NCBI RefSeq assembly: GCF_902652985.1
Contig: NC_047024.1
Coordinates: 22,382,001 to 22,446,000, forward strand
Length of the DNA stretch: 64,000 nucleotides
Direction: 5' to 3'
Source: Pecten maximus
Taxonomy: Eukaryota
The notes beneath the pieces are model-generated. The model was not told the origin of the DNA, searched no databases, and worked only from the letters and a program-made list of their open reading frames with translations. The translations under genes were made by a program, and so were the position numbers. This document shows positions 3,901 to 64,000 of this stretch, piece after piece. Position 1 is the first letter of the stretch; the number at the start of each line of letters is the position of its first letter.

Positions 3901-4602
3901 TAATCAAGTGTATATGATGCGTTATTGATAAATTAACTATTCCACAATACTGTAAATCACTTCTGTTTCATGTGCGATTTATTTTCACATTAATATGCAA
4001 GGAGTGTTTATCACGAATTCAAATCTGTCGCGATTATTTGTATGAAAATAACACCTGGATGTAGGCCAAGCTATCTGTTAACGATATAGGAGTATTGAAG
4101 AGTCTATGACTCTAAAAGCTCATCATTCCTGAATTTAAAGTAATTTCTAAATCAACGTTCATGAAATCATGTATTTGCGAAAATCGAATATGTCTTAAAA
4201 GGTAAGTCCACGAAATAAAGTATTCGTGAAATCTTGATTTACAGTAGTGGTGTCGTTAAGAACAATATTCTGATATTGAGGTATTGACCCTTTCTTTTTT
4301 CCTTGGCATGGATTCCATTTAAATGTTGATTTGGTTATAATAAATAGACATTTGCAGTAATTGTAGTGCCTTTTATTTCAGCTGAACGGAAAGCTTTTGA
4401 GCAAAAGAGAAAGCTGCATTACAATGAATTTCAAGCTGTCAAACTAGCCAAGCAGTTGATGAAAGATGAAGATGATGACGATGAAGAGGATGATGATGAT
4501 AATGAAAGTAACAAATTAGAAAATAATGTGACAGACTCAAGTCAACAGCCAAATCGGGATTCAGCATTAACGGAGGATTGTAAACAGTCCGCCGGACAAT
4601 GA
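938..4602 (+). CDS. PPP1R2: Protein phosphatase 1 inhibitor-2 (~210 aa, 4 exons)
   Basis: Exons 938-1014, 2449-2679, 3086-3189 and 4382-4602 have GT-AG ends and consistent phases (633 nt). Motifs: KGILK (SILK), [44 protein letters not shown]. Confidence 0.95.
3215..3375 (-). mobile_element. Degenerate Crypton-like non-autonomous remnant
   Basis: Hairpin TATTTTCACTGC...GCAGTGAAAATA, three GAAAATATAAGTTTT repeats and a CCAATCAG box. The layout resembles the other Crypton-like elements in the window. Confidence 0.35.
3948..4246. mobile_element. MITE with TA-flanked CTGTAAAT...ATTTACAG ends (Tc1/mariner/pogo-like)
   Basis: TACTGTAAATCA at the left end and TGATTTACAGTA at the right end. Similar elements lie near 30172-30389 and 44970-45175. 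Confidence 0.55.
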
Positions 4603-23300: not shown

Positions 23301-24582
23301 ACAATCACATATGTGCATTTTGTTCACATATGACGGACACGATCATCGATTCACGTAACACCTGACAGACAAGCATGTTACGTGAGATTGAAACTTCGGT
23401 TACATCGAATTAAATAAACTACTGTTTACTCTTGTAAAATATGTATTCTAATGATTGAACTTTGGAAAGTATATTATATGACAAAATAAAATCACGGTCT
23501 TAAAAATAACTGATATATTACACATGTGTCTGTCATTTGTCCACACATGTTACGTGACATTTCTGTTCCGTTACGTGCGATGTTTGATAATTGTAACCAG
23601 TTTAATATTTAAGAAAACTGACTTTAGCTTGATTTTATTTCCTTTTTTATAGAAACAATGTTAACAATAGGTTCAAGATCATTTTAAACTACACTTAATT
23701 TTAAAAAGATAAAGTAAATATGGCCCATTATGAACTTATCATTGCACGAAAATTTGCTGAATTTTAATTTTAATCCACATCTGTTGTCATTCAATATCAC
23801 AAAGAACTATTATTATTTCGTTCAGCCAATGTATATGTATGTGTATTAATAAATTATTATCAATAATCATGATTAAATAAAATTAATTTTGAATCATCAA
23901 GGTGTTATATAAGATCTAGTTAGACTTTTTGTATCTAAATAATTGGAATTTTAAGGAATGTTTTCAACTTTAAACTGTGGAACTTTACATATATTAATAT
24001 TTTATAATTACTGTTATAATAATTATATTGATATATAAACATATATTGATCTACATGTAACACAAAACAGTAACAAATTAATACTATTAAAGTAGGAAAT
24101 ATAATGTAGGCACTCATAAATTGAAAGTTTAAAATGTACGTCCATGCTCGTTTAATCGCATTCATATAGGCTACCAAGGGCAAGTACTATTCTGGTTGAA
24201 AGTTGACCAGGATTTAGTAGCAAAAATAAATAATCTTAATATATATTGTGTCAACAATTACATGTACGAGAATCTTTTGTATTGTCTCTTCGACTGAATC
24301 ATCCATTTCAGACCAGATGTTGCCTTATTGGTCAAATAGAATGGTTTTATTATATATAAAAAAAAAAAAAAAATTATGTATACATTTTAAAACAAGTTTT
24401 GTGATATGAATAAATATGAAATTCATTCTATTTGCTTAATAATTTGATATGACACTAGCTAATATTGGCTCAAAACATACATATAAAAAGTATTTACTTG
24501 GTTGATAAATTCTTTATTGCATATTCACTCAAGTCAGATCCTCATTAAAAAAAACAAATTTCATTGTAGAGTACCAAGCAAC

Positions 24583-27500
24583 ATGCCCAGCAAACTTAAA
24601 GTGGTATTAAAGAATACACACGATAAAGAAAAACATGCTGAGCGAATGCGAGTGGCCAGACATGAATGGTCGGAGGAGCAAAAGCAAAAAAACCGAGAAA
24701 TGTCCAAGATCAGAATGAGGGAATACAGAGAAAGAAAAAAGACGGAGAGAGAAAAGACAAACAATTCAGAAGTCCGAAAAATGGCAACAAGACAAGAAAA
24801 AAAAGCAAAAGAAGAGCAAAATAAAAGAAAAGCTGAATACAGAAAGAAATATAGAGCTGGCTTGTCAAGCCAAAAGAAAAGGCGTATACGAGAAAAAGAT
24901 GCAAAAAGAAAGCAAGAAAAGAGGTGCAAGAATATGATAGGAGCAACGACTGTTGTCCAATCAGTACCTATCACAACTGAGAACACAAAGACCCCTTTGT
25001 CTGACAGTGCTTTAAAAAAGGCTGTCTACCGGGCTAAAAAGAGATTGCCAAAGTCTCCATCCAAATTTGCAGATGTTGTTTCTGGCCTTGTAAGCAATGC
25101 CACACCAAGAAAAAAACTTGCTTTAAGCAATAAAGGATTGGATTCCTCTGAAACAAAGAAAAACTTGGACAATATCCTGCAATCTATCAAAGATGTGGAC
25201 TTAGATATGAGAGGAAGGGACAGAGAGAGTCGTATGAAAAGGAAGAGTTTTATTGGGTCCCTCTCTGAACATGTTAAGAAAAGACACGGAATGACATCAA
25301 CTTTCAGCGCAGCACTTGGCATACAAAGAAAGTACTTTTCACAAGGGTGTCTTAAAGAACAAAAGAAAAGAAAAGACTGCATTGCTAAAGAAACAGAAGA
25401 GTCAATCCAGAACTTTTTTTGTCAAGATAATGTGTCGACTAACTTACCAAACAAAAAAAACATCAAGAAAGATGCTGTAGAGTGTAGAGTTATCCAAGGA
25501 TCACTTCACAGTGTATGGAATAAATGGAAAGAAGCAAATCCCAACAAAGCTATTTCATATGACAAATTCACCAAACTCAAGCCTAAGGTTGTTAAAACAC
25601 AAAAACACAGAAAATACCTGCAGTGTTTGTGTGAATACTGCGAGAATCTAAGATTGAAGATGGTAGCTATCAACAAGCTTTCTCAAGAACAGAAGCCTAC
25701 ACTAAAAATGAAAAGTATCCAGGAGGCCGTGGAGAAGACTCTTTGCCCCAGGACTGGTCCATTCCACAGCCTTAAATGTATTGACAGGGAATGTGTAGAC
25801 TGCGGAACCGGAAAACTGCATGCAGACCTCATTGCTGCATTAGAAGAAAAAGACCAAGAATGGAAAAAGTGGGCGCTACAAGTATCGATAAACAAAAGAA
25901 ATGGTAAAGAAATAAAAAAGAAAGAACTCACAGTTAGTAAAGGAAAAACATCAGAATTGATTGCTGAATTTGAAAAAGAACTCCACTTCCTCTCCAAACA
26001 CTTATTTGAAGCCAATTGGCAAATTTCGCAGTTCGGAATTCTGACCAAAAACATTCCACCTGCAACAATTGCTTTAGCTATTGACTTTGCCGAGAACTAC
26101 TCTTGCATGTCTCAAAATGAAGTACAATCAGCACATTGGTCAAAAGAATCTGTTACAATACATCCCGCAGTTGTTTATTATCAATGTCCCACCTGTCCAG
26201 GTGAAGTGGTGGAGGAGTGTTGCGATATCATCAGCGATGATTTAATACATGATGCCCATGCTGTTAATGCCTTTCTCCATAGAATATTCCAACATCTGAA
26301 AACTAAGAGAGGATTGCAGGTCAATAAAGCATTCATTATGAGCGACGGTTGCGCGGCACAATACAAGTCAAAAATTCCATTTTGTGACGCAGCGAACGCC
26401 ATCACTGAGTTTGGGTTTATAGTGCAGCGCGACTTCTATGGGTCCAGACATGGGAAAAATAGGTGTGATGGGGAGGGGGGCGTTTTAAAATCGAGGGTGA
26501 CAAGGGCGGTCAAAAACGGCGAGGCTGAGATTGTCTCAGCATCAGACTTTTACACCTTTTGTAGGGACAACCTCGAAAAGGACTCCAAAGATGATAATGG
26601 AAAGTGTCTACACAAGAGAAGGCATCTTCTCTATGTTGCATTGGAAAACATTCAAAGACCACGCCCTGAAAGAAACATTCGCACCATTCCAGGCACTCAA
26701 AAAATCCATTCACTGGTTGGCGTTGAAAGGGAAATGGTTAAGACAAGGCGTCTGTCCTGTTTTTGCCAGAATTGCCTATATGGTACACCCGAGAATTGCC
26801 AGCAGAAGGAGTACATAGATCAATGGAAGCCAATTCGCCTGAAATGTATCCTTTATAATGTTAGAATGTTAGAATTTTATATTTATAATTTATATGAAAA
26901 TAATTATCAAATTGGAAAACAAAAATATGACAAAACGATTATAAAAATTCTTGACCCAATTAAGATCTCCAACAACCACAACCAGCTGTTGATGTCCAGC
27001 CCATGGTACAACCTGTTGATGTCCAGCCCATGGTACAGCCTGTTGATGTCCAGCCCATGGTACAGCCTGTTGATGTCCAGCCCATGGTACAACCTGTTGA
27101 TGTCCAGCCCATGGTACAGCCTGTTGATGTCCAGCCCATGGTACAACCTGTTGATGTCCAGCCCATGGTACAGCCTGTTGATGTCCAGTCCATGGTACAG
27201 CCTGTTGATGTCCAGTCCATGGTACAGCCTGTTGATGTCCAACCCATGGTACAGCCTGTTGATGTCCAACCCATGGTACAACCTGTTGACTTCCATCATG
27301 AATTACAGCCACACGATACCATGGTTAGAGTTTTTATTATGATAATCTAGTAATGTTGTTTTTTTCAAATTGAGCTTCATTGAGGTTAACAAAGGATTAA
27401 CATATTCTAAAGTTCATATATATTTTTTTAATCAGGTTCTTGCCCAGTCTGTAGAAGATATTCAAGCCCAATCAGTCCATGACCAGACACAAGATAGTAG

Positions 27501-30593: not shown

Positions 30594-32630
30594 CTATTCT
30601 ATGACATGACAGTTTGCCTGCATCGCGTAACACTGTTTGATTGCCTCCTGGCAGTTGTTGAAATCCTGCCAGGGAAGACACAGGTTCTGCTGCAGGAATT
30701 GTAGGTGTTTGTTCAACACATGAAGGGTGTGTTCTGGTCCCTGATTCCCAGACAGAAACTTCTCTAGGACAGCGCGGAAGACTTTGTCCGAGCATTCCAG
30801 CGTAAGAATGGTCTTGGCAAGCTTCTGTGTGTACTTACAGATGGTACACTTGGCAGTTTTCGTGGTGGTGTTGACTGTTGACAAAGCACCGTTACACTTT
30901 TCACACTTGTAAGTAGGCGTCTCGCTAGGTATGTTGAAATACATCGGCCACACATTCTGACAGGGGAGACAATTACATACAAATTGGTACTGCGACAGCT
31001 TTTTTTGGCGATCAGATTTTGTACTCACTGCATACACTGCGCCATAGTTATCCAAGATTTCTTGACCCTTTGAAATTTTCTTGATGGCTCTCACTACACA
31101 AGTATCCCCGTAGGAATGACGGACGACATCTGGATCACACGAGTGGTTGAATAGACTAAGCATTGCATATATGGCAGAACCAATTTCTTCCCCAAGAGAT
31201 TCAGCAACCATAGTTCTCCTCAATTTTAATTCAGAAACTTCATGAGCGTTGCATGGAAGCATCTGTATGTGACGAAGAATGTGACCTCCTATATACATCA
31301 GGTCCTCCTGTCGTCTTTCTGTCGAAGGAACAAAAGAGGAATTCTCTATGCATTTCACAAGGAAAACAGTGTTAATTGTCCTTTTCAAAAGATCTGTAGT
31401 AGTTCGTTTTTCACAATGATTCACTAAGTTGTAGACAGTGTTGTAGTCATTGGAGTCATAAACCCCATCCTTGTTGAACCCCGATCCAAATGAATCACCA
31501 ACTCCATCAGCTATATTCTTATATTCCTTCAAATACTCAAATCCAGCTTTCAGAACCATTCGAAATGACAGATGTCCCAAACCCAGCTGAGCAGCTTGAA
31601 TATCACCAAGATGTTCGCATTCTACGTAATGATAGGTATCCCAAGATTCCCTTTCACACTGACGTGAACAGTAGCCAACTCCAGCACAATTACGACACGG
31701 GAACGGACAGAATAATTTCTCGCAGCAGTTGTGACAATTTGATACGCTAAATCCTGGCAATGTCACCGACATATAGGCTTTCTCTACAACAAGGACATCA
31801 CCAATGTTTATGTCGTCTGTTGCATATATGCCACGACCGGTTTCCTCACTTTCTTCCATGGTAACGGCAATAGATGCATTGGGAAATTTCTTGCTTCTTT
31901 GTGTTATCACTGGTAGAGCAGAATGACACTTGTTACACTCAGCTTGGGTTTTCATAACTTTTTTATGTTGATCATCTTTCATTTTGTCACAAGCTACAAT
32001 CAACTTGTCCAATTCCTCTGTTATCTTTTTAACTTTATCTTCATCCAAGTCAGATATCTTTATTTGATTTTTCGCTTTCTCAAATGCTTTAATTGCCTCT
32101 TCTCCCCATTTCAACTGCATGTAACACTTTCCTTTCCTGTCGTAAAGTTTGTACTGCAGATTTTCTGGATAACCATTTTCTAAAGCAAGCTCAATGTCTG
32201 CCAGACACAATTCATCCTTTGCCATATGAAACAACACTGCTGATCTATTTGCAAATGCCAAGGCTAAAGTTGGAGTTTTATCAATGTTACCATTATCTTC
32301 ATTAGAATTACTGCTTCGCCAGGGTGAGAAGAGAACACTCTGTGTATACAAATCAAGAGCCTGCTTGTATTTCTTCTTTTGGAAAAAAGCATTTCCCTGG
32401 TTACGAAGACTAACAGCTACTTCGTCACATTTTTCTCTGAAATTTGGATTTGCCTGAATGACATCTTGTGCAATTGGAAGTTTATAAATCAAACTCACTC
32501 GTTCTTCATTAGATGTGCACTTATCAAATTTCTTTCTCAATTCTTCCAAGTTTCCTTCATCTCTTAAGCTGTCAGCAATTTTATCATACCATTCATCTGC
32601 ATTGTTCTTGTTCTGTGAAGTAGATGCCAT
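30594..32630 (-). CDS. SMYD4: SMYD4-like SET and MYND domain lysine methyltransferase (~678 aa, single coding exon)
   Basis: N-terminal TPRs (RNQGNAFF..., FANRSAVL), split SET domain (GRGIYAT; LFNHSCDP; EILDNYG), MYND finger (CHNC..CRNC..YCSRQC..H..EC) and post-SET CNCLPC. ATG at 32630, with a splice acceptor at 32652-32653. Confidence 0.88.
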   Translation of the reverse strand: MASTSQNKNNADEWYDKIADSLRDEGNLEELRKKFDKCTSNEERVSLIYKLPIAQDVIQANPNFREKCDEVAVSLRNQGNAFFQKKKYKQALDLYTQSVLFSPWRSSNSNEDNGNIDKTPTLALAFANRSAVLFHMAKDELCLADIELALENGYPENLQYKLYDRKGKCYMQLKWGEEAIKAFEKAKNQIKISDLDEDKVKKITEELDKLIVACDKMKDDQHKKVMKTQAECNKCHSALPVITQRSKKFPNASIAVTMEESEETGRGIYATDDINIGDVLVVEKAYMSVTLPGFSVSNCHNCCEKLFCPFPCRNCAGVGYCSRQCERESWDTYHYVECEHLGDIQAAQLGLGHLSFRMVLKAGFEYLKEYKNIADGVGDSFGSGFNKDGVYDSNDYNTVYNLVNHCEKRTTTDLLKRTINTVFLVKCIENSSFVPSTERRQEDLMYIGGHILRHIQMLPCNAHEVSELKLRRTMVAESLGEEIGSAIYAMLSLFNHSCDPDVVRHSYGDTCVVRAIKKISKGQEILDNYGAVYAVSTKSDRQKKLSQYQFVCNCLPCQNVWPMYFNIPSETPTYKCEKCNGALSTVNTTTKTAKCTICKYTQKLAKTILTLECSDKVFRAVLEKFLSGNQGPEHTLHVLNKHLQFLQQNLCLPWQDFNNCQEAIKQCYAMQANCHVIE

Positions 32631-32795
32631 TGTAATGGAGAGCTGGTGCACCTAGAAGACAAAAATATGAAACTAGAGTATTGATTTAATTAATCTATAA
32701 ACAATTAAATCTAGTTAGAATACATAATGGGTGACAGGTTTTCTCCTATTTTGTATATTCACGACTATTCTGTATAATATGAGAGGAAAAATGTA

Positions 32796-37173: not shown

Positions 37174-40100
37174 TCAGTCCTCGTAGTCCGGATTCTTTCT
37201 CAGTATTACGAAGCCTTCCATCAGTGGACTCAGCGGTAGGTCTGTTCCAGGTTAAGGAAACAACTTACATGATTTATACATCCCATCGTTCCCCAAAGAT
37301 AATCTAGTGATATCAGTTTTATAATACCACTCAATACCAACTTACAGGATTTATATGTGTACTGTAAATCACTTAGATTTCATGAACTTACATTTCCAGG
37401 CATTTTCACGAATACATGGTTTCGCAATCATTGATCTAGAAATGATTTTGAATTCACAAATGATGAGCTATTAGTGTCACAGACTCTGCAAGACTCCCAT
37501 ATTGGAAACCATAGCTTGGTTGCCATCCGAAGGTGTTATTTTCGTACAAATAATTATGAAGAATTTTAATTCACAATTGACTCTCCTCACATATATTTAT
37601 GTGAAAATAAATCCATTGCGATAAATATAAATAATTTACAGTAACCCTCAAAACTGATAGCCTAATGAAAACATTCAGGATTATATAAGGATTTAGAGCC
37701 CCCCTCAAAACTGATAGTCTGGTGAAAACATATAGGATTTTATAAGGATTTATAGCCCTGGCCACTGATAGCCTGGTGCATAGCCCCCGCCCTCAAAACT
37801 GATTGTCTGGTGAAAACATAGGATTTTATAGAGATTTATAGCGCTGGCCCTCAAAACTGAAAGCCTGGTGAAAACATAGGATTTTATAGGGATTTATAGC
37901 CCCCGGCCCTCAAAACTGATAGCCTACCGGTAGTGAAAACATAGGATTATAAAGGGATTTATAACCCACCCTCAAAACTGATAGCCTGGTGAAAAGATGC
38001 AGGTTCTTGTAGCCTTTTATATGACAAAATCTCTTGACAACATAAAAGTTGTATATATCTTCTCAAAACTGACCTAGTAGAGACAGAATTTTTAATACTG
38101 TAAGCCAAATCTTTTGACAGCATACAGGTTCCATATAGCTCCTCAGTACCACCGACCTACGGTCAGCACCAGGCAACTGGCCAACGTAAGTTTCGAACTC
38201 ATAACCCAGAGTTGGAGGGCTAGAGATAAATTGTCAGGATACCTTAACCATTCAGCGACTGCGGCCCGTTACCAATGTGTTTAATTGCTCACCATACGAA
38301 AAGAGTTTCAAAATTCTATTTGAGTTCTAAGAAACCAAAGGCATACATCTTATTTGAATCCTGACTTCGTAGTTTTATTTCAAATTTCTCTTTAAAACCC
38401 AATAATATAATAGGATTTCATCAAAAGAAAGGATACATTCCTCCGTGGCAAGTTCCGCCCTCTCGCCATAAGCCAACAGTACTGGTGTGGTATGTGTCTG
38501 GAATCCAGTGATGGTTTTTGGCTTACCTGCTTGCCCAACTACATCAACAGCCTGTCGAGGATAAAGAACACAGCTATAACCTACAAACATTACAGTTTTT
38601 CTCCCAAATGATATTGGTTAATAACACGTTCTCCCTAATAATATCGGTTAATAACACTTTCTCGCTTATAATATTGGTTAATAACACTTTCTCCCTAACA
38701 ATATTGGTTAATAACACGTTCTCCCTAACAATATTGGTTAATAACACTTTCTCCCTAATAATATTGGTTAATAACACTTTCTCCCTAATAATATTGGTTA
38801 ATAACACTTTCTCCCTAATAATATTGGTTAATAACACTTTCTCCTTAATAATATAGGTTAATAACACTTTCTCCCTAATAATATTGGTTAATAACACTTT
38901 CTCCCTAACAATACTGGTTAATAACACTTTCTCCCTAATAATATTGGTAAATAACACTTTCTCCCTAATAATATTGGTTAATTACACTTTCTCCCTATTA
39001 ATATTGGTTAATAACACTTTCTCCCTAACAATATTGGTTATTATTATATAATGTGTATTTATCCATATTCTCATTGGCTAAATCGCTAACACGTGACTTT
39101 TGATAAATAGCGATAATAACTGGTTTCCAAAGCAAAACCAGTTAATATCAAAACAAGAGGCCCATGGGGCCTGTATCGCTCACCTGGTTGGATTTGACCA
39201 AATGTCAAAATAATGTTCATGTTCAATTCCTTTTGTTTGTTAACCTCAAACAATGCTATTTATGGTTATAGCGTGGGGATCCCAACTGCTTTAAAGAAAT
39301 AATGAAGTCCAGACTCTCTGAGTTTACAACATGCATTTATAACTTTATGACTAGTAGTGATTTAAAGGAATTACCTCTATTTCCTATATGGGGCCCCGCC
39401 CCTTTTGCCCCTCGGGGGTCAGAGTCACCATTTATGCAAAATCTGTTCCCCTTCCCCCAAGAATGTTTCTTACCAAATTGGGTTCAAATCCATTCATAAC
39501 TTTATGACTAGTAGCGATTTTAAGGAATTACCTCTATTTCCCCATTAGGCCCCGCCCCTTTGGCCCCTTGGGGGTCAGAGTCACCATTTATGCAAAATCT
39601 GTTCCCCTTCCCCAAAGAATGCTTCTGACCAAATTGGGTTCAAATCCATTCATAAATTTATGACAAGTAGCGATTTAAAGGAATTACCTCTATTTCCCAT
39701 ATGGGGCCCCGCCCCTTTGGCCCCTTGGGGGTCAGAGTCACCATTTATGCAAAATCTGCTCCCCTTCCCCAAAAGATGTTTCTTATTAAATTGGGTTCAA
39801 ATCCATTCATAACTTTATGACTAGTAGCGATTTAAAGGAATTACCTCTATTTCCCATATGGGGCCCCGCCTCTTTGGCCCCTCAGGGGTCAGTCACCATT
39901 TATGCAAAATCTGTTCCCCTTCACATAAGAATGTTTCTGACCAATTTGGGTATAAATCCATTCATAACTTTATGACTAGTAGCGATTTGAAGGAATTACC
40001 TTTATTTCCCCATTAGGCCCTGCCCCTTTGGCCCCTTGGGGTCAGAGTCACCATTTATGCAAAATCTGTTCCCCTTTCCCAAAGGATGTTTCTTACTAAA

Positions 40101-43100
40101 TTGCGTTAAAAACCATTCATAACTTTATGACTAGTAGCGATTTAAAGGAATTACCTCTATTTCCCATATGGGGCCCCGCCCCTTTGGCCCCTTGGGGGTC
40201 AGAGTCACCATTTATGCAAAATCTGTTCCCCTTTCCCAAAGGATGTTTCTTACTAAATTGCGTTAAAAACCATTCATAACTTTATGACTAGTAGCGATTT
40301 AAAGGAATTACCTCTATTTCCCATTTGGGGCCCCGCCCCTTTGGCCCCTTGGGGGTCAGAGTCACCATTTATGCAAAATCTGTTCCCCTTCCCCCAATGA
40401 TGTTTTTGACCAAATTCGGTTCAAATCCATTCATAACTTTATGACTAGTAGCGATTTAAAGATATTACCTCTGTTTCCCCATTAGGCCCCGCCCCTTTGG
40501 TCCTTTGGGGGTCAGAGTAACCATTTATGCAAAATCTGTTCCCCTTCACATAAGAATGTTTCTGACCAAATTGGGTTCAAATCTATTCATACCTTTATGA
40601 CTAGTAGCGATTTGAAGGAATTACCTCTATTTCCCCATTAGGCCCCGCCCCTTTGGCCCCTTGGGGGTCAGAGTCACCATTTATGCAAAATCTATTCCCC
40701 ATCCCCAAAGGATGTTTCTGACCAAATTGGGTTCAAATCCATTCATAACTTTATGACTAGTAGCGATTTAAAGGAATTGCCTCTATTTCCCCATTAGGCC
40801 CCGCCCCTTTGGCCCCTTGGGAGTCAGAGTCACCATTTATGCAAAATCTATTTTCCATCCCCAAAGGATGTTTCTGACCAAATTGGGTTCAAATCCATTC
40901 ATAACTTTATGACTAGTAGCGATTTAAAGGAATTGCCTCAATTTCCCCTATTGGGCCCCGCCCCTCAGGCCCCTTGGGGGTCAGAGTCACCATTTATGCA
41001 AAATCTGTTCCCCTTTCCTAAAGGATGTTTCTGACCAAATTGGGTTCAAATCCATTCATAACTTTATGACTAGTAGCGATTTTAAGGAATTACCTCTATT
41101 TCCCCTAATGGACCCCGCCCCTTTGGCCCCTTGGGGGTCAGAGTAACCATTTATGCAAAATCTGTTCCCCTTCCCCAAAGGATGTTTCTGACCAAATTGG
41201 GTTCAAATCCATTCATAACTTTATGACTAGTAGCGATTTGAAGGAATCACCTCTATTTCCCCATTAGGCCCCGCCCCTTTGGCCCCTTGGGGGTCAGAGT
41301 CACCATTTATGCAAAATCTGTTCCCCTTCCCCAAAGAATGTTTCTGATCAAATTGGGTTCAAATCCATTCATAACTTTATGACTAGTAGCGATTTAAAGG
41401 AATTACCTCTATTTCCCCATTAGGCCCTGCCCCTTTGGCCCCTTGGGGGTCAGAGTAACCATTTATGCAAAATCTGTTCCCCTTCCCCAAAGGATGTTTC
41501 TGACCAAATTGGGTTCAAATCCATTCATAACTTTATGACTAGTAGCGATTTAAAGGAATTGCCTCAATTTCCCCTATTGGGCCCCGCCCCTCAGGCCCCT
41601 TGGGGGTCAGAGTCACCATTTATGCAAAATCTGATCCCCTTCTGCCAAGGATGTTTCTGACCAAATTTGGTCAAAATCCAATAAGAACTTTTTGACTAGT
41701 AGCGATTTGAAGCAAATGTTGACGGACGGACGACGGACGACGGACGCTGCACCATGGCATAAGCTCACCGGACCTTCGGTCCAGGTGAGCTAAAAACCAG
41801 TTAATAACACCGGCGCTAAAAAAAGATTATGACAAACCAGTTAATAACACCTCCGCTAAAAACAGATTCTGGAAATACCCTACCGGAAGTTACGTAATAC
41901 CATAGCAACGCATAGGAAATGGCTGCGTCTGCTGTTTCGCCGGATTCGAGTCCTAAAAAAATGTGGTTTGCGTCTCTAAACGATGAGAACATTAACAAGT
42001 TAATGACAGAAAAGGATTCCATAAACACAAGAAGAGCGACAGACTCAGCTGTAAAAAATTTTAAGGAATATTTAAAAGAAAAGAACGTGGCAGAGGACGT
42101 TGAGACTTTGGACTTTGAGTTGAGTACGTTTATCATTTCATCATATATACTTTGATTATATAATAAAACAGTTATGGACTTTTTATGGACTTTTCGGCTT
42201 TGCCTCGGTCAATATTAGTTCCATTCTGGTTAATATCAGAGCATATTAACCAAGTAAAAAGTCCATAATTGTATAATAACACATTCTCCCTAATAATATT
42301 GGTTAATAACACTTTCTCTCTTATAATATTGGTTAATAACACGTTCTCCCTAATAATATTGGTTAATAACACGTTCTCCCTAATAATATTGGTTAATAAC
42401 ACTTTCTCCCTAATAATATTGGTTAATAACACGTTCTCCCTAATAATATTGGTTAATAACACGTTCTCCCTAATAATATTGGTTAATAACACTTTCTCTC
42501 TTATAATATTGGTTAATAACACTTTCTCCCTAATAATATTGGTTAATAACACGTTCTCCCTAATAATATTGGTTAATAACACGTTCTCCCTAATAATATT
42601 GGTTAATAACACTTTCTCTCTTATAATATTGGTTAATAACACTTTCTCCCTAATAATATTGGTTAATAACACTTTCTCCCTAATAATATTGGTTAATAAC
42701 ACGTTCCCCCTAATAATATTGGTTAATAACACGTTCTCCCTAATAATATTGGTTAATAACACTTTCTCCCTAATAATATTGGTTAATAACACGTTATCCC
42801 TAATAATATCAGTTAATAACACTTTCTCTCTTATAATATTGGTTAATAACACGTTCTCCCTAATAATATTGGTTAATAACACTTTCTCCCTAACAATATT
42901 GGTTATTATTATATAATGTGTATTTATCCATATTCTCATTGGCTAAATCGCTAACACGTGACTTTTGATAAATAGCGATATTAACTGGTTTCCAAAGCAA
43001 AACCAGTTAATATCAAAAAACCAGTTAATAACACCGGCGCTAAAAATAGATTATGAAAAACCAGTTAATAACACCTCCGCTAAAAATAGATTCTGGAAAT

Positions 43101-46100: not shown

Positions 46101-49100
46101 TAAATATTCAACTCGCCACTGCACAAATGTGAAAATAATTAAACATTAGATTTCGCCACTGCACAAATGTGAAAATAATTAAACATTAGATCAGCTATCA
46201 AACTTTTATTTCATTTTAATTATTATATATAAATCAAAATTTCCATATATGCTCAGAATTTGTCACCAACATTGATCAACTTTGTCAGTCCTTTTAAAGT
46301 GATCTATTACACCTACAGAACATAAAACTGATTTCATACCCTGTTGTGAAGATAGATCTGCACTTGTTGACTCTTTTTCTTTTTCCTTTTCTTTTTCTTT
46401 AGTATCCTTTTTCTTCTTGTCATCTTTCTTTTCATTATTTTCCTGAAAAATAGATTAAAACAATTGCTGTAAATATGCTTGAGGTCATCATATCAAATCA
46501 TCATACTGAATATACAATAGGTCTCTAATCATTACTGTAACAATATTTATGTAAGCATAACATATTCCAAAGACGTTGATATAATAGTTACATGGACTGG
46601 AGATCAGAACCCTTAGGTTATGAAGATGCTAATGGCAGAAATGCAGTCTTTATTTCCAATAAACTGTTCAACAGTAAAAGACAAACCTGGTCTTTGGACT
46701 CATCGTGTTCAGAGCAGACATGCAACAAATGTTGGATTTTCAGTACATTCCCAGTGCCTGATAAAACGAAATATTTGAGACAATTACAATATGAAACACG
46801 CTGAAAAACATTTGGTAAATGTAATTAAAACATTTCTTCTTACTACTAGAAACAATGTTAAACAAAACCAAGTACATACTAATCAATTCACAAAGTCAAT
46901 TTTCTTTAAACTTACATAATTTTCCAATACATAGTAAAAATATTCTAAAACTTTTCATTAATATTAACAGCAATGAAATCATACTTATATATGGTGGTGC
47001 CAAAAAGCAATTTTGTTCTAAAATTACTGCAAGCCTAAGTAGATGTCCCAGTTCTGTATAATTTACACCTGCCAAATGTTTTGTTCTCACTGAATAAAAT
47101 GTTAAAAGTTGATACAGTGTCTATAATAACAATGTAGAGGCTACATACCAGCGTAGGCACACACATCAACCAGCATTCGCGCCATTGACTTAAGAGGCTC
47201 TGCAATCACTTCAAGTGCCACCAGAGTAGCCTCAACAGCATCCTGTTTACCTGTAATCATAGTTACACAGATCTGGTTTAAAATTGCTGCTTTATTATTT
47301 TAAACCACTTCAGATGAATTTCAAGATTAAAATAATGTTAACTTGTAATTCATTTAATTCTGTTTTGCAATTACTTCAAAAAAATTCAAATGTAGCCTTT
47401 TGAATCATCAAAAACATCACAATGCAGAAGTAAACATATGGAATGTAACCAGTCAAGAATAATGGGATACGGTTGTAATCTTACCTAGGTATGTCAGAGC
47501 AAGTCCGAGGGCCAGAAATCGTGAGTATGTATCCTTAAGATCAGCTTCAGACCTCTCCATCATGGTCTGTATGATGGTAGAGGTAACATCTCCATTACAG
47601 CTTCCCACAGATATCATACCACAAGCCAAGGCCGCCATCCCTACAACCTATAAACAAACACAGATATCATACCACAAGGCTGGACCGCCATCCCTACAAC
47701 CTATACACAAACACAGATATCATACCACAAGCCAGGGCCGCCATCCCTACAACCTATACACAAACACAGATATCATACCACAAGCCAGGGCCGCCATCCC
47801 TACAACCTATAAATAAACACAGATATCATACCACAAGCCAGGGCCGCCATCCCTACAACCTATAAATAAATACAGATATCATACCACAAGCCTGGGCCGC
47901 CATCCCTACATCCTATACACAAACACAGATATCATACCATAAGCCAAGGCCGCCATCTCTACAACCTATACACAAACACAGATATCATACCACAAGCCAG
48001 GGCCGCCATCCCTACAACCTATAAATAAACACATATCATACCACAAGCCAGGGCCGCCATCCCTACAACCTATAAATAAACACAGATATCATACCACAAG
48101 CCAGGGCCGCCATCCCTACATCCTATACACAAACACAGATATCATACCACAAGCCAGGGCCGCCATCCCTACATCCTATACACAAACACAGATATCATAC
48201 CATAAGCCAAGGCCGCCATCTCTACAACCTATACACAAACACAGATATCATACCACAAGCCAGGGCCGCCATCCCTACAACCTATAAACAAACACAGATA
48301 TCATACCACAAGCCAGGGCCGCCATCTCTACAACCTATACACAAACACAGATATCATACCACAAGCCAGGGCCGCCATCCCTACAACCTATAAATAAACA
48401 CAGATATCATACCACAAGCCAGGGCCGCCATCCCTACAACCTATAAATAAACACAGATATCATACCACAAGCCAGGGCCGCCATCTCTACAACCTATACA
48501 CAAACACAGATATCATACCACAAGCCAGGGCCGCCATCCCTACAACCTATAAATAAACTCAGATATCATACCACAAGCCAGGGCCGCCATCCCTACATCC
48601 TATACACAAACACAGATATCATACCACAAGCCAAGGCCGCCATCTCTACATCCTATACAAGCTAGGGCCGCCATCACAACCGATATAACCAGATATACCA
48701 CAAGCCAGGGCCGCCATCCCTACATCCTATAAACAAACACAGATATCATACCACAAGCCAAGGCCGCCATCTCTACATCCTATAAACAAACACAGATATC
48801 ATACCACAAGCCAGGGCCGCCATCCCTACAACCTATAAACAAACACAGATATCATACCACAAGCCAGGGCCGCCATCCCTACAACCTATACACAAACACA
48901 GATATCATACCACAAGCCAGGCCGCCATCTCTACAACCTATACACAAACACAGATATCGTACCACAAGCCAAGGCCGCCATCTCTACATCCTATAAACAA
49001 ACACAGATATCGTACCACAAGCCAAGGCCGCCATCCCTACAACCTATAAACAAACACAGATATCATACCACAAGCCAGAGCTGCCATCCCTACAACCTAT

Positions 49101-52100
49101 ACACAAACACAGATATCATACCACAAGCCAAGGCCGCCATCTCTACAACCTATACACAAACACAGATATCGTACCACAAGCCAAGGCCGCCATCTCTACA
49201 TCCTATAAACAAACACAGATATCGTACCACAAGCCAAGGCCGCCATCCCTACAACCTATAAACAAACACAGATATCATACCACAAGCCAGAGCTGCCATC
49301 CCTACAACCTATACACAAACAGATATCATACCACAAACAGTTACCATACCACTTGCAAGGCCTCCATCACTTTTCATTGCATCACCTATGAGAACTGACA
49401 GTTAGATATCTCTACCTTGTTCGGAGTTTTTTCAAAAACACATTCTAGAAGGTAAGTATATTTTGTTTACAAGTCTTTAACAAAAATCTACCAGTTAAAG
49501 AGTTTAAAGTTTGCCCATAATGTGACTTCTCATTTTTGCAGATAAACATGAATAATTTAATTTTGCTTGTAACAAGCATATTCATTGGCTCAAAATATGA
49601 TGTTATCATCTCATAACATAAATAATGACTGTGACGTCAGCGGAGTAATCGTTGTTCACAGGATTTTGTATTTATCGATGTGTTTTTAAATATCTGGAGC
49701 AAAATAAACATGTTAAACTTAATGAAAATATTTCTTATCGTTGTTGATTAAATTAGTAGGGTTAACTGTAATATTTTTTTTAAGTTATTGAGCAATAACA
49801 CAAAAAACTGGGGTGTACTCTTTTCATAAACCGCTTCGCGGTTTATTCAGAGAACACCCCAGTTTTTTGTGTTATTGCTCAATAACGTAAAAAAAATATT
49901 ACAGTTAACCCTTAACTACATCTCATTAAAATGTGGGTTGCAAACTATGACAAGGCGACTTCTAAATTCAGTAACTTTGTGCTTGACCTTGTAGTCAGAT
50001 GTCTGAAAAATCATTCCAGATATATCAAAGAATAGAAATTGGTATTCTAGATATATTATTTAACACCTTTACAATGTGCAATCAAAATGTTAAGAACCAA
50101 AGAGCAATGTCCAGCATTCAATCAGATGGGCAATGCCACACCATAAAACAACCTGTCATATTTACTTACCTCCATAGAAGCTTTGCTGTCACCGAGTACT
50201 GGCAGTATAAGCGTTAATACATCTTCTCTGTTAGACCCTGCATATGCTAGACCAAGGCTGCAACAAAAACATTTATTCTCTTTAATTCTTAAAAATCCTA
50301 ATAATTAAACAATCTGCAGAATTATATGTCTTAACATACTGCTGATAACTCTCTAAAATCACAGGGTCAAAGTCAAAATTGTTTTCCAGTTTTAAAATGT
50401 AGACCCTATGCTCAAACTATAAACTAAATTTGAGTTTTTGAGAAAATTTTCGAAATGCAACTTCATTACATCGACGCCAACTGAAAAGCATTAACTTAAT
50501 TTCATTTCTGCCCCTTCATCCCCACGAAAAGGACATCATAAAAATTACAAATTTAAAACGCCTTGTTCAACTTACCCAACTATAGCCCCAATCCTCATGA
50601 TTGCTGTTGTGTGCATGACATAGTCTGACAGGAGGGCGAGTGCCGGGTCACATTCATTCCTTACACCTGAGTTTACAATACCACAGGCCAGGAGAGCCCC
50701 CGCCTTGATAAAGTCTTCAGAAGAGTATAAGTATTTGTCTATCTGTGTTAGACCACCGTCCACATCCCACAACAGGATCAGACCTAAAGACGCTGTGGCA
50801 CTCAACATACCTATAACACAAATCGCCTTGGTTACTATATACTCTTGAAAATGCAAACTTCAAATATGGGGATTCAAATATTTTTAAAACTTTGAACATT
50901 CATTCTACTAATTTTGAATGAGAATGCACAAGAAACTTATCCCCTATCTTCATTTACATAAACAGACAAAAATAATTTCACAATGTTCCTATATAGGTTT
51001 ATGCTGTCATGTGATTTCATTTTAATTCAGCTTATCAAGCTTTCTGGAACTACATACCATGTTCTTTGTTTTTATACAGCCACTTATTTCCATCCTCCAT
51101 TAATAGTTTGTCCTGGCCAAATGCTGCATTCACAAATCCGTTTACAAATGATGAAGCCAAGTTTTGCCGTGCTGAATCTACGTTACTTGGACCTATGGTG
51201 GTACCTGCAAATATAAATAGGATTTTCAAAAAAAATTTAGATACAAGATTGTTTAAATTTTGCATCATATCTTTTAAATAACAATATTTCTATTTTGTTT
51301 ATATCATGATTTTTCATTTCCACTACACCAAGGAATTAAGTAAAACATGCTGTAGATAGAACTACCACAACATATATATGAACACTTGTTTACAGCATAC
51401 AGAGGAAAGTTTTGAAGATCTAAACTCTGAATACTTAGAAAAACCTTTATACAGCTCTATACCAAGAAACAAATGCTACCAACAATGCCATTAGGATTCA
51501 TTTTCTTTAAGACAGGTGTGAGCAAATTTGGACTTTCTTCCAAGATCTTTATCATTCAATTATCTCTGGTAATACTTGGACAACCAATGTTAGATAGTCC
51601 TACAAACACTCACGACTTTGTTCTAAATGTGACTTGTAGATATCTTCTGGCACTTTGGGTTCCATAATATCCAACTGCAAAGAGAAATGGTATTTCGAAT
51701 ATACATTTAATGCAATCAATCACATGAGGTATTTTCAAGTTACTGACCCAAATAGTTGAACCTGAAAGACGAATGAAATCCACAGGTCGGGACTAGAACT
51801 GCCCTCAGATATTTCGCATATGAAGATTTATGGTGTCAGCAGACCCCCAAATGGCATACTATAGGTAGTTTTCAGAATTTCTACACAACCTCACAAAATA
51901 TTCTTCATCAATGATAAATAGCTTGAAGCTGGTCATCACACACAACTGGTATTGTAGGATATATATACATACCTCTCTTGCCAAGGCAAGGAAATTGTTG
52001 TTGAGGTGGGCATTAGACATAATCTCTGTCATCTCGTCAAACTCCTCCACATCGTCCCCAAGCTCTAGGTATATCTGCTGTCTCCCCAACATGTAAGCCA

Positions 52101-58112: not shown

Positions 58113-61100
58113 ATGACGGACGGGGAGTGCGTAAAGGTAATTGTAAGGTGTCGTCCTATGAACACCCGAGAAAAGGAACTAAAATGTGAGTGTGTTCTCA
58201 GCATGGACGGCAAACGTGCCCAATGTACAATAAAAAATCCATCAGATCTAAAGGCACCTCCAAAAGTGTTCACATTTGATGGATCTTATTTCACAGACTC
58301 GGTGACGGAAAATATATATGCAGACATAGCCTATCCTTTGGTGGAGGTGAGTATATTTTGACCTAGACTTTTAGTTATTGATTACAGGTGTATAATTGTA
58401 TACTGATTACACTTCTGGGAAGTTCATCATTCAAAGACAATGAGATAAGAAAATTTTTCTTTGTGAAATAGTCTAACAAGTATGTTCTGTAAGAAAAATC
58501 AAATAATTGGAAGTATAAGGAGTATCTTTCTTAGGTTGTAAAAATTGTAGTTTTAATTCACTTCCTGATTCAACTTAGGAGCACCATATAACTGAATAAA
58601 GAAGTAGGATGATCGAAAGATCACATTGATCAGCCAGCTCCTGACAGTATTTTTTTAATTTTGTTGTTTTGACCATTAATGTTTTAAAAGACAACACTAA
58701 TGATTATTTTTGAATAAAAACAGTAATTCTAGCAAAAAAATTCAGTACACAATTTAGGGCCGTTGAGTTTTTTGGAAACTGATTTAAAACATCTATAAAT
58801 TAAAAGATTTCTTCTTGTCCTTGTGTGATTCAGAAGCCCACTTATAAGATATTTTAGGTTCTGAAAGAGCAGGAGAAAAACATTTAATTTGCATACATTT
58901 ACGCTGGTAGAGCTAATTAAAAACTTCTTATGGGGTTTATAATTATATATATAATTAGTAAGCTCTTCAGCATGTTTATGCCGAAGAGATTCCTTGTAAT
59001 CAAAATATTTCTTCTTAAATTATTTCATAAATGTATATATATACCTTTCAGAAAACTAGCAACTGAGTTGGCGATGATTATTAGGATGTAAAATACCATT
59101 ATTTACTATAAACCTCCAGCTTAAGTGGCCAGACACAACTGGCAATTATGGACAATAGATCTGTTTAAAAACCCTGACCACTGACCAGTGGCTTAAGCTT
59201 ATATATCTCATGTATTAATGTGACCTACTTATGTGAGCAGTATATAATGCATTCTTGAGAATTAAATAATATATTATATTGTCAGCTGCTTGGGAACTAT
59301 TTCTTACATCCCAGAAGAATAGACTGAGAAAATGTTTATTCCTTCATTGACAAACTCTGGACGTTAAGTGGAATAGATTTAGTTTTATTACCTGCACATT
59401 AAAAGCTAGTACATAATTAAATTTTTTATATCATGCTAACTAATATATAAACTGTTATTTTTGTCCCAAATTGGTTGAAAAACATATTAGGCTGTTGAAA
59501 AGATTTGTAGGAAAACTTGAAACAAGCATACCTTGACGGCTTATGTTTTAGGTGAAAACAATTAGCATTTATGTATGTATATATTATGTGTTTAATATTG
59601 TTTTCCATCAAATGCAAGTATTTTCCTTTTCCTTTTTTGTGATTTTCTGAGTTTTTATCAATTTATAATATGTTCCATATTATACATGTACAAGAAGTGT
59701 ATACATGTAATTTGTATTCACATGTTTACAGCCCTGTCTCCCAATACACCTGAGGTTAAAGGTGTATTAACCGATACATACCCTCGCCGAGGCTTTAAAA
59801 ATATACCCACAGAGCATGAACTTTTTTTTTATTGCTTTAAATTATCAATAGTTTTTATCTTAAAAGTTTTTCCAACATCAATTACACATTTAATGACTCC
59901 CTGTTGATTAATGGGTAAATTATTCAATTTCGACTACCCCAGTAAATTTGTTTAGTTAACGATGAAACAGCAAAAAATTTATTCGATAGAAGTAACATTA
60001 AGAACATTCTTGAACTTTTATCAAAGTTAAATTAAAATATATTATTTCAAAACTTCTTACCAACAGTTTGGACTAAATTCATTCAGGATTTGCACTATTA
60101 TATCTAAACCAATTGAAAACGGCACAAAATAATGCAATCAAAGCACAAGCAGTCTTGGATATCAACCCATACAAGCTAGCACACATATTATGAAGATAAT
60201 TGAATTCTTTTGCACAGGTTTTTTGTTTAATGATCTTGACATGAAAAATAGTTATGGAACTTTCGTAATAGTGTAATAGAGGCGCAAAGGTCTAGTGGTA
60301 GGAAGCAAGGCTACGTGACCGAAGGGACGCTAGTTCGAGTCGCAGCTAGGGCGCTGTGTTGTATCCTAAATGTTACAGTCGATCGACTCAGCTGTAAATG
60401 AGTATGTGGTAGGGCAGGGCAAGAAGTGTCGTGTATAAGCTGTTAGTGCTGAATTGGCAGCTCAGGTTGTATATGTTCCCCGGGGATTGGTATATAAAAC
60501 TCCAAATAAAATTATAATAAGCCTTCCCCAAAATATCATTCTAAACTTTTACACTGAGGAAGAGGGCTTATTTGAGAATAGATACAGTATATTGTTTTTC
60601 TTTCTTCTGTTGTGAGTTTTGAAATGATTTTACTATTAACTGAAGTTGGTATCTAGATATTCTGGCTGTTTTGTAGGGCGTGACGGAGGGATACAATGGG
60701 ACAATCTTCGCCTACGGTCAGACAGGATGTGGTAAATCATTTACAATGCAAGGTATCACCAACCCCGCATCCCAACGAGGCATCATTCCGAGGTCAGCAC
60801 AGCTTCAGTATCTTTTACATTGTTTATTATAGTTGACTTTATTTATAACACAGTTTTTTCCTACATATTCCAGTTAATAACAATTTTTTCATGATAATTA
60901 TGATAATTTTTCAAAACAATGTTATAAAGCAAAACAATCATGAGCATTGCATTAAATAAGAATTATGAAAAAAAAACTTACCTGCTACATGTATATCATA
61001 TATCAAGTAATTGTGGTAGATGGATCAATATTCATTTAGTAAGATACAAGTTTTTAATTGTTTCAGGGCTTTTGACCACATTTTCGAGACAGTTTCTGTG

Positions 61101-63628
61101 GCCGAAGAAACAAAATTTCTCATCCATGCATCATATTTGGAAATCTACAATGAAGAAATTCGAGATTTATTAGGGAAAGATGCCAAAGCAAAAATGGATC
61201 TTAAAGAACACCCAGAGAAAGGAGTCTATGTCAGTGGTAGGTTTTACAGCAATATGTAGTAGGGTTTACTTCGTTCTGAGCACTTTTGTGATTTCGGAAC
61301 CATACACTTATCTGGATAAATATCATGAACCATACACTTATCTGGGTAAGTATCATGAACCATACACTTATCTGGGTAGGTATCATGAACCATACACTTA
61401 TCTGGGTAAGTATCATGAACCATACACTTATCTGGGTAAGTATCATGAACCAAACACTTATCTGGGTAGGTATCATGAACCAAACACTTATCTGGGTAGG
61501 TACCATATGAACCATACACTTATCTGGGTAGGTATCATGAACCATACACTTATCTGGGTAGGTATCATGAACCATACACTTATCTGGGTAGGTACCATGA
61601 ACCATACACTTATCTGGGTAGGTATCATGAACCATACACTTATCTGGGTAAGTATCATGAACCATACACTTATCTGGGTAGGTACCATGAACCATACATT
61701 TATCTGGGTAGGTATCATGAACCATACACTTATCTGGGTAGGTATCATGAACCATACACTTATCTGGGTAGGTATCATGAACCAAACACTTATCTGGGTA
61801 GGTATCCTGAACCAAACACTTATCTGGGTAGGTATCATGAACCATACACTTATCTGGGTAGGTATCATGAACCAAACACTTATCTGGGTAGGTACCATGA
61901 ACCATACACTTATCTGGGTAAGTATCATGAACCATACACTTATCTGGGAAGGTATCATGAACCATACACTTATCTGGGTAGGTACCATATGAACCATACA
62001 CTTATCTGGGTAGGTACCATATGAACCATATACTTATCTGGGTAGGTACCATGAACCATACACTTATCTGGGTAGGTATCATGAACCATACACTTATCTG
62101 GGTAGGTATCATGAACCATACACTTATCTGGGTAGGTACCATGAACCATACACTTATCTGGGTAGGTATCATGAACCATACACTTATCTGGGTAGGTATC
62201 ATGAACCAAACACTTATCTGGGTAGGTATCATGAACCATACACTTACCTGGGTAAGTATCATTAACCAAACACTTATCTGGGTAGGTTTCATGAACCAAA
62301 CACTTATCTGGGTAGGTATCATGAACCAAACACTTATCTAGACAGATTTGTTTGAGTTAAATCCTTTGCTGATTGGGTAAGTGTGTTGATTAATTCTCAC
62401 AACAATTTTTGCTTAATATATAAAACATTTTGATAATCATTTGCAAGGTTGGCTTAACTTATTGGTCTCTTGGATAAGTTGCTGACAATTTTGTCTTACT
62501 TTATAGAACACTTTGATATTCACTGAAAATTGTATCTTAATTCATTCTGTAAGACTCCTTCATAATTTACTGGAAATTTCATCATAATCTATGACTTTTT
62601 GAAAATTTAATGAAAATTTGATCTTAATTTATTAATTTATTAGACTCTTTGATAAGAAACCGACAATATTGTCCCTCATAATTCACAAACAATTTTTATT
62701 TTAAGGACTTTCAATGCACCCAGTACACAATGTCACAGAATGTGAGCGTATAATGGAAAAGGGTTGGAAAAACCGTGCTACAGGTGCCACACTCATGAAT
62801 GCTGACTCATCTCGCAGCCACAGTATCTTTACTATCAACTTAGAGATGATACAGGAAGATGATGAAGGAGAAGAACATATCCGTGCCGGAAAACTTAACC
62901 TTGTCGATCTGGCTGGCAGTGAAAGACAATCCAAAACAGGTACTACATTATATTTCAAATTACTTTGTTACAGTTAGTTTAAATACTTTGAAGCTTTATA
63001 AATTCAGTCTTTTTATTTACTGTATTTTGACATGATTATGTATCTTCACCGGTACCATATTTCTTAATGTGAATTGTTTTGATATTCAGGTGCTACTGGA
63101 GACCGTCTGAAGGAGGCCACAAAGATCAACTTATCATTGTCTGCCCTGGGAAATGTCATATCTGCACTTGTTGATGCAAAAACCAAACATATCCCGTACA
63201 GAGATTCCAAGCTCACACGTCTTCTACAGGACTCTCTTGGAGGTATAGAAATTGTTTTAGTTATTTATAGCCGAGTAGAATGAAACAGACATTTTTAAAA
63301 ACTGTCAATGTGTAAAATTTTCATGTTTTTGGGATTCCATACTAATTTTGATTAACATCTTTTTGAGAAAGGATAACCTTATTTCATATGCTCTGCTCTC
63401 TAGGTAATACAAAGACCCTTATGGTTGCTTGTTTGTCACCGGCTGACAATAACTATGAGGAGACTATAAGCACACTACGTTACGCGAACCGTGCCAAGAA
63501 CATCCAGAACAAACCCAAGATCAATGAGGACCCTAAAGATGCCCTGCTGAGAGAATACCAGGAAGAGATCACCAAACTCAAAGCTATGTTGATGGGGCAG
63601 CTCCCGATCCCTGAGGGAGGCTTCCAAG
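58113..63628 (+). CDS. KIF17: Kinesin-2 KIF17/OSM-3, first 6 coding exons (motor and neck); 3' part lies outside the window
   Basis: Exons 58113-58346, 60677-60792, 61067-61236, 62706-62939, 63090-63242 and 63404-63628. Motifs: [100 protein letters not shown]. Confidence 0.93.
60279..60490 (+). mobile_element. tRNA-derived SINE (degenerate)
   Basis: A-box-like GGTCTAGTGG, B-box GTTCGAGTC, followed by CACTCAGCTGTAAATGAGTA-like central sequence. Confidence 0.6.
61297..62340. repeat. 30-bp minisatellite (~34 units) in a KIF17 intron
   Basis: Unit GAACCATACACTTATCTGGGTAGGTATCAT, with three 32-bp variants. Confidence 0.97.
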
Positions 63629-64000
63629 GTAATTATATGGAGGGTTGATGGGGCAGCTCCTAATCCCTGAGGGAGGCTTCCAAGGTAATTGTATGGAGGG
63701 TTGACAGGGCAGCTCCCTATCCCTGAGGGAGGCTTCCAAGGTAATTGTATGGAGGGTTGATGGGGCAGCTCCCGATCCGATCCCTGAGGGAGGCTTCCAA
63801 GGTAATTATATGGAGGGTCGATGGGACAGCTCCCTATCCCTGAGGGAGGCTTCCAAGGTAATTATATGGAGGGTTGACAGGGCAGCTCCCTATCCCTGAG
63901 GGAGGCTTCCATGGTAATTGTATGGACGGTTGATAGGGCAGCTTCTGATCCCTGAGGGAGGCTTCCAAGGTAATTATATGGAGGGTTGATAGGACACCTC
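63588..64000 (+). repeat. 56-bp minisatellite (at least 7 units) copied from a KIF17 exon/intron donor junction
   Basis: Unit GTTGATGGGGCAGCTCCCGATCCCTGAGGGAGGCTTCCAAG|GTAATTATATGGAGG, i.e. the last 41 nt of the exon plus 15 nt of intron. Confidence 0.95.

Follow-up and report, generated by a model that had tools for sequence, protein, structure and literature searches.

An exon-boundary minisatellite of 39 copies in the scallop KIF17 gene, with splicing seen at its first donor

Analysing a stretch of 64,000 nt of the Pecten maximus genome (C10:22382001-22446000, hereafter the window), to which 59 kb were added downstream to trace the end of the array and the next exon, we describe at the edge of KIF17 exon 6 a 56-bp minisatellite that repeats this exon's authentic 5' splice site. 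By its structure and splicing features, it is an exon-boundary minisatellite of the kind represented by the human F7 VNTR and the amphioxus "mirages", and the main KIF17 RNA is spliced at the first of its donors. The assembled contigs splice at the first donor alone, and the array very probably arose neutrally, as a side product of tandem duplication, without serving as a means of regulation. The arrangement belongs to a described class and is not a device specific to KIF17: it represents an unusually long case of a tolerated class of repeats, and says little about KIF17 itself. It nevertheless provides a natural test: 34 identical donors follow one another at 56-nt spacing and the first alone is seen used, in an animal far from the mammals on which first-donor scanning was tested.

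The KIF17 locus and the anatomy of its array

From its sequence, the host gene is identified as a KIF17/OSM-3 kinesin-2 with a predicted motor, neck and KIF17-type stalk/tail. Its motor matches the Pfam Kinesin family (E = 1.8e-9), exon 6 shows 100% identity with Pecten maximus proteins named KIF17 or OSM-3-like and with those of two other scallops, and the P. maximus KIF17 isoforms map exon by exon onto the locus, with at least 10 exons after exon 6. The introns between coding exons 1-8 (Table 1) are all GT-AG and the joined reading frame is open. Exon 6 is separated from exon 7 by an intron of 9,859 nt, and the downstream extension proposed in the original prediction located both the end of the array (C10:22447780) and the start of this next exon (C10:22455488).

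To unit 1 of the array, exon 6 contributes its last 41 nt (63588-63628) and intron 6 its first 15 (63629-63643); this composition had been proposed from the letters, and the boundary set by spliced RNA contigs bears it out. The repeat scores 3287 in TRF with 88% matches, far above chance, and one in-window unit reaches 61 nt owing to a 5-nt insertion. Listing the donor 9-mers over the 39 copies gave 34 AAG|GTAATT, 2 GAG|GTAATT, 1 ATG|GTAATT, 1 AAG|GTTATT (the last copy) and 1 dead AAG|ATAATT, and confirmed the announced repetition of CCAAG|GTAATT with a single CCATG|GTAATT copy, at 63914. The GT is retained in 38 of the 39 copies, i.e. the authentic donor and 37 later ones. The units form a mosaic of 34 distinct sequences with 0-8 differences from unit 1, in which copies 10-12 equal copies 21-23 and copies 1, 16 and 38 are identical; these are signs of tandem turnover. 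A search of the genome DNA with the end of exon 6, which gives lower bounds, matched the unit at the KIF17 locus only.

Translation past donor 1 continues as GNYMEG, adding NYMEG, and meets a TGA at codon 384, giving a 383-residue product; the original prediction had placed this stop correctly, and it lies upstream of every later donor. According to the donor chosen, exon 6 would measure 225 nt (first donor) or 281, 337 ... 2,359 nt. The accompanying claim, that any distal donor would truncate KIF17, holds for every extension of exon 6, all of which include the TGA, and fails for the 15 copies that allow an in-frame 33-nt cassette: a later donor need not truncate KIF17, because its pairing with the 33-nt acceptor would stay in frame. 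A stop-bearing extension of exon 6 with at least 10 downstream exons is expected to undergo nonsense-mediated decay (NMD), and a fragment restricted to motor and neck would be without the autoinhibition and cargo binding of KIF17.

Several other features were noted along the locus. PSMD2 (minus strand, 55520) and KIF17 (plus strand, 58113) lie head to head, with start codons ~2.6 kb apart. Most of what remains of intron 6 (L009:3100-9700) belongs to a dispersed repeat family, whose nested copies have (CGTC)n heads and contain tandem units of 145 bp and 324 bp, and a look-alike of this dispersed repeat, with a 157-bp unit, occurs at 39334-41800 of the window. Further downstream, a stalk intron contains a 7-kb array (165 x 43 bp, L010:9135 to L011:6213) that starts ~70 nt past the donor of the stalk exon, and the annotated isoforms vary in the acidic, glycine-rich stalk (879-1,058 residues).

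Table 1. Coordinates of the KIF17 features and of the exon-edge arrays, in window numbering unless a contig or locus is given
Feature	Position	Strand	Remarks
KIF17 coding exon 1	58113-58346	+	
KIF17 coding exon 2	60677-60792	+	
KIF17 coding exon 3	61067-61236	+	
KIF17 coding exon 4	62706-62939	+	
KIF17 coding exon 5	63090-63242	+	
KIF17 coding exon 6	63404-63628	+	225 nt; motor domain end, neck linker, neck coil; spliced joints in RNA contigs
KIF17 coding exon 7	73488-73588 (numbering carried on) = C10:22455488-22455588	+	locus L010, beyond the window
KIF17 coding exon 8	74170-74329 (numbering carried on)	+	beyond the window
56-bp minisatellite (KIF17 donor array)	63588-64000, on to C10:22447780	+	39 copies, 2,193 bp in total; 7 donors in window; homology-backed, used in finder training
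Authentic donor AAG|GTAATT	63629-63634	+	sole donor seen used; partner exon 7
In-window donors	63629, 63685, 63741, 63802, 63858, 63914, 63970	+	
In-frame TGA on donor 1 read-through	63646-63648	+	upstream of every later donor
First AG-(33 nt)-GT pseudo-microexon	63708-63740	+	others in window at 63769, 63881, 63937, 63993
30-bp array, KIF17 intron 3	61297-62339	+	internal control; 32 TGG|GTA(A/G)GT motifs; skipped in RNA contigs
53-bp array, PSMD2/RPN1 (PSMD2 acceptor array)	47606-49336	-	mirror case; 32 acceptors with 42 nt from the beginning of the exon; the in-frame acceptor is the last (exon start 47647); homology-backed, used in finder training
VCPIP1-like donor array, 37 bp x 38	L033:7440-8837	-	E = 0.049
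VCPIP1-like acceptor array, 38 bp x 3	L033:3457-3570	-	E = 3e-5; same gene, donor match on same strand, in order
BLTP1 (KIAA1109)-like donor array, 42 bp x 30	L066:8038-9292	-	E = 9.8e-7
BLTP1 (KIAA1109)-like donor array, 23 bp x ~16	L070:6058-6425	-	E = 4.7e-8; same gene
HSPBP1 acceptor array, 47 bp x 5.7	L036:5910-6176	-	E = 9e-13
KCNT/Slack-like channel donor array, 55 bp x ~15	L101:5987-6805	+	E = 3e-5
Candidate donor array, 74 bp x 5.6	L167:1264-1680	-	score 23; without homology support
Candidate donor array, 17 bp x 87	L042:9868 onward		without homology support
Candidate donor array, 30 bp x 10.8	L160:1732-2055		without homology support
Candidate donor array, 35 bp x 5.6	L115:9515-9707	-	without homology support

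Donor choice in RNA contigs

The RNA source consisted of 24 runs, all of them assembled contigs, of which 8 were compared with positions 62600-63700, a segment that spans donors 1 and 2; any later-donor product must read through 63629-63684 and is hence covered by this comparison. Runs X11-X14, with small word shares, were left out. In X1, X2, X6, X7, X17 and X15, a spliced contig departs at 63630 and enters exon 7. X7 and X17 agree in all figures and were counted once, which leaves 5 independent data sets, X15 coming from a related species. X6 alone is recorded as RNA, the other runs being guessed as RNA or unlabelled, yet their contigs are spliced. The contigs of X9 (to 63569) and X16 (to 63471) stop short of the donor and are uninformative.

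Among the contigs of the 6 informative runs, which as contigs drop rare or NMD-prone forms and collapse repeats, no joint between donor 2 and exon 7 was found. The annotation gives the same picture: all 7 annotated P. maximus isoforms continue in frame across the exon 6-7 junction and diverge further downstream, and the same point is read in frame by 6/6 Mizuhopecten and 1/1 Ylistrum proteins. The best RNA runs contain 0.33-0.34 of the words of 63000-64000, for an exons-only expectation of 318/971 = 0.33. The main KIF17 RNA is settled as spliced at donor 1, and the distal-donor use that the original prediction had associated with NMD or a tail-less isoform was seen in none of the 6 informative runs or 7 annotated isoforms, all of which use 63629. 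Use of 63629 is exclusive in the contigs and isoforms; the contigs leave room for rare use of other copies, and a later-donor share of a few percent may exist, because contigs drop rare forms and NMD depletes stop-bearing RNA.

Contigs covering the array were absent from 7 of the 8 runs, which we do not regard as proof that such RNA is lacking. The remaining run, X1, yielded an 86-nt unspliced contig over 63607-63690 that crosses both GTs and carries array-type variants, and for which pre-mRNA, a retained intron and DNA origin are indistinguishable. Copies 36-37 are the part of the assembly that comes closest to it; they depart from the reference stretch at 5 positions, against 4 for the contig, 2 of which are specified. 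The contig hints at a variant unit pair. We rejected the contig as a spliced product, as it reads through the GT of both covered donors.

Origin of the array, known counterparts and alternative readings

Under the neutral reading, a 56-bp segment across the exon-intron boundary would have been duplicated and would then have grown by slippage or unequal exchange. Copy 1 would stay joined to the exon throughout, confining growth to the intron, and the protein would be left untouched because this first copy remains contiguous with exon 6. The spliceosome would pick the first donor it meets after the exon 6 acceptor, as in human F7, while rare slips to later donors would carry the TGA and be removed by NMD, leaving weak selection against the array. 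First-donor selection is the likely mechanism, with NMD as a probable safety net.

What distinguishes the copies is their position (and the stop codon), because 34 donors are identical and donors 1-3 are equally unpaired. In local folding, donors 1, 2 and 3 were unpaired with a mean probability of 0.75, 0.77 and 0.72, respectively, and a masking of the later donors by RNA structure was rejected on these values. Compared column by column over 37 units, the donor 9-mer shows 4 variant alleles over 9 positions, positions 19-38 show 14 over 20 and positions 48-56 show 4 over 9, unit variation being concentrated in positions 1-18. We see no selection acting on the decoy donors, as 23% of the 9-nt windows vary as little as the donor 9-mer. 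We also discarded recursive splicing through the AG|GT that recurs in each unit, the top acceptor-like scores falling at other AGs with a maximum of 5.6, against 10.5 for exon 7.

An internal control is provided by the 30-bp array of intron 3, whose donor-like motifs score 6.9 (TGG|GTAGGT) and 9.0 (TGG|GTAAGT), versus 9.1 for the true donor. Contigs join exon 3 directly to exon 4, their loose ends before 62705 corresponding to the end of exon 3. By eye, this array does not derive from the end of the exon, and its motifs begin ~60 nt past the true donor.

The closest counterpart is the 37-bp VNTR of human F7 intron 7, for which the accessible part of Borensztajn et al. (2006, PMC1557585) describes a boundary-spanning first unit followed by near-identical pseudo-donors, with the most upstream donor used; across 50 constructs, the pseudo-donors were functional, the next one taking over once the upstream donor was removed, the most upstream one won, and the authors argued that stop codons are not the cause. 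The same text lists the interferon-inducible gene 6-16 (25 pseudo-sites), CBS intron 13 (15-20), LMNB2 (10-15 x 100 bp) and PDGF intron 4 (16-18 x 81 bp), and indicates that F7, LMNB2 and PDGF use the first donor only and that 6-16 and CBS use two more pseudo-sites. Minor use of the later KIF17 donors thus has a precedent, since 6-16 and CBS use two such further sites. As far as this source goes, KIF17 resembles F7 in its boundary-spanning first unit, the pseudo-donors that follow and the use of the upstream-most one, and differs from it by its copy number (39 versus 5-9), by the exonic part of the unit (41 of 56 nt versus 4 of 37) and by its molluscan host. First-donor scanning was tested for F7, in mammalian cells.

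Marine invertebrates offer a second counterpart. In amphioxus, the accessible part of Ebner et al. (2010, PMC3087553) describes "mirage" minisatellites in Adh3 and the globin genes BflGb6 and BflGb9, at both donor and acceptor ends and with splicing reported as undisturbed; somatic and allelic length instability is reported for Adh3 and BflGb6, and mirages are suggested as a source from which new exons and introns could arise. The scallop and amphioxus cases share, within what this source covers, tandem boundary copies at both donor and acceptor ends, a marine invertebrate host and preserved splicing, and differ in copy number (39 for KIF17 versus 3-6 in the globin cases) and in the gene concerned, here that of a scallop. 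A third comparison is with latent 5' splice sites, the unused intronic donors behind an in-frame stop described in work on suppression of splicing (PMC1524910, PMC3510495, both accessible in part): the later KIF17 donors likewise lie behind an in-frame TGA, with the difference that they are copies of the authentic donor. Our literature search, mostly without subscription journals, found no paper on scallop exon-boundary arrays and nothing on competing duplicated donors or scallop minisatellites at splice sites; the accessible part of PMC10078293 contained nothing on boundary-spanning units.

This latent-site arrangement underlies the first alternative to the neutral reading, namely a regulated unproductive splicing in which tissue or stress would switch on later donors and KIF17 would be lowered by NMD or converted into the 383-residue tail-less motor. 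A TGA before every later donor is the defining arrangement of latent sites in the accessible parts of PMC1524910 and PMC3510495, the GT is kept in 37 later donors, and array sequence occurs in run X1. We nevertheless consider such regulation quite improbable: neither the contigs of the 6 informative runs nor the 7 annotated isoforms show it, the conservation of the donor motif within the unit is not selective, the F7 authors argue in the accessible text that the silence of pseudo-sites is not explained by stop codons (PMC1557585), and unrelated genes bear similar arrays at about chance frequency.

A second alternative considers the array as a source of exons. The variation in positions 1-18 gives 17 of the 38 later copies an AG-(33 nt)-GT configuration; 15 of these are in frame and stop-free, and each would add 11 residues resembling the exon 6 end. 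Spliced in as 33-nt microexons, such near-copies could lengthen the hinge that follows the neck coil, a region whose length differs among molluscan KIF17 orthologues. Their acceptors are purine-rich and score mostly 1-3, versus 10.5 for exon 7, although two, at 5.1 and 5.6, would fit among 31 real acceptors, whose scores span 2.8-15.6 (in-sample). A single G-to-A change in the 56-bp unit accounts for 16 of the 17 cases, 33 being divisible by 3 through a lucky position, and inclusion of a 33-nt cassette was found in none of the RNA contigs or annotated isoforms. We therefore give hardly any credence to such microexon addition in KIF17; the array as an exon source would be a potential only, along the path by which Ebner et al., in the accessible part of their article, propose that mirages become new exons (PMC3087553). 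It also seems very unlikely that the array works as an exon nursery in the wider sense, with microexons or later donors picked according to tissue or stress and a copy number setting how long the KIF17 hinge is or how much full-length motor is made. If true, some one to seven thousand such arrays would provide this genome with a polymorphic supply of new exons, observed here as it operates.

Retention of the array for its many U1 sites independently of splicing, for instance to shield the long intron 6 from premature cleavage, is extremely unlikely: the 38 U1-matching motifs do stand at the head of a repeat-filled intron of 9,859 nt, and the head of intron 3 carries a second donor-like array, but the donor motif lacks selective conservation and acceptor arrays (PSMD2, VCPIP1, HSPBP1) originate as readily. 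An assembly artefact can be practically dismissed, for although the copy number is that of the assembly and a scan of metagenome contigs for the unit junction (other alleles) gave 0 matches, 34 of the 39 units are distinct while sharing variants and a repeated block, and the 86-nt contig of an RNA library spans a unit junction with array-type variants.

Exon-edge arrays across the genome

Comparable arrays were surveyed in two sets. The first, of 923 kb, combined 523 kb surrounding the window with 200 kb of C6 near a kinesin exon match and 200 kb of C3; the second, of 799 kb, was chosen by a fixed rule that took a 50-kb piece at 15 Mb from each of 16 other contigs. Exons were located with a rough finder, for which 31 junctions and 4,971 coding nt from KIF17 and PSMD2 served as training data. 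The 1.72 Mb contained 331 arrays, and tandem arrays occupied 6-22% of the sampled sets. At least 8 arrays lie at a homology-backed exon edge (Table 1), a lower bound since homology was checked by Pfam on 23 of 54 and 12 of 57 candidates and by PDB search on 7. Two further arrays of the fixed-rule set scoring at least 20 were dropped, both without a Pfam match: L171:8039-8215, of low complexity and with a better donor upstream, and L104:2375-2827, where the ORF lies in a 145-bp repeat family.

Outside the window, 5 arrays reached a score of at least 20, versus 5.0 expected from all arrays (P = 0.56) or 2.6 from single-locus arrays (P = 0.125). Including the two window cases gives 7 versus 2.6 expected (single-locus arrays, P = 0.018), but both of these cases had been selected by the finding itself and used in training. 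Enrichment at exon edges is not significant without the window cases, and some excess may exist. Random array birth is enough to explain exon-edge arrays, because a donor-straddling unit always grows into the intron and the first donor stays in frame. Outside the window, 1.66 Mb yielded 6 arrays with homology backing, a rough rate that corresponds to ~3,300 genome-wide (95% range 1,200-7,200); the fixed-rule rate of 1 in 0.8 Mb corresponds to ~1,100 (range 30-6,400).

No paper reporting a genome-wide study of leakage in scallops was found in our search, conducted mostly without subscription journals. Combined with the annotated genome, deep raw RNA reads could measure leakage to later donors against distance, copy number and stop codons over thousands of loci.

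The surveyed sequence also contained long open reading frames: a single-frame ORF of ~950 codons at 24487-27339 of the window (plus strand), with a 27-bp coding repeat at 26986-27289; another of ~685 codons at 30597-32651 (minus strand), with a TPR-like start by eye; and, at L014:8420-10000 (C10 ~22503420-22505000), an ORF of more than 500 codons resembling by eye the reverse transcriptase of a non-LTR retrotransposon.
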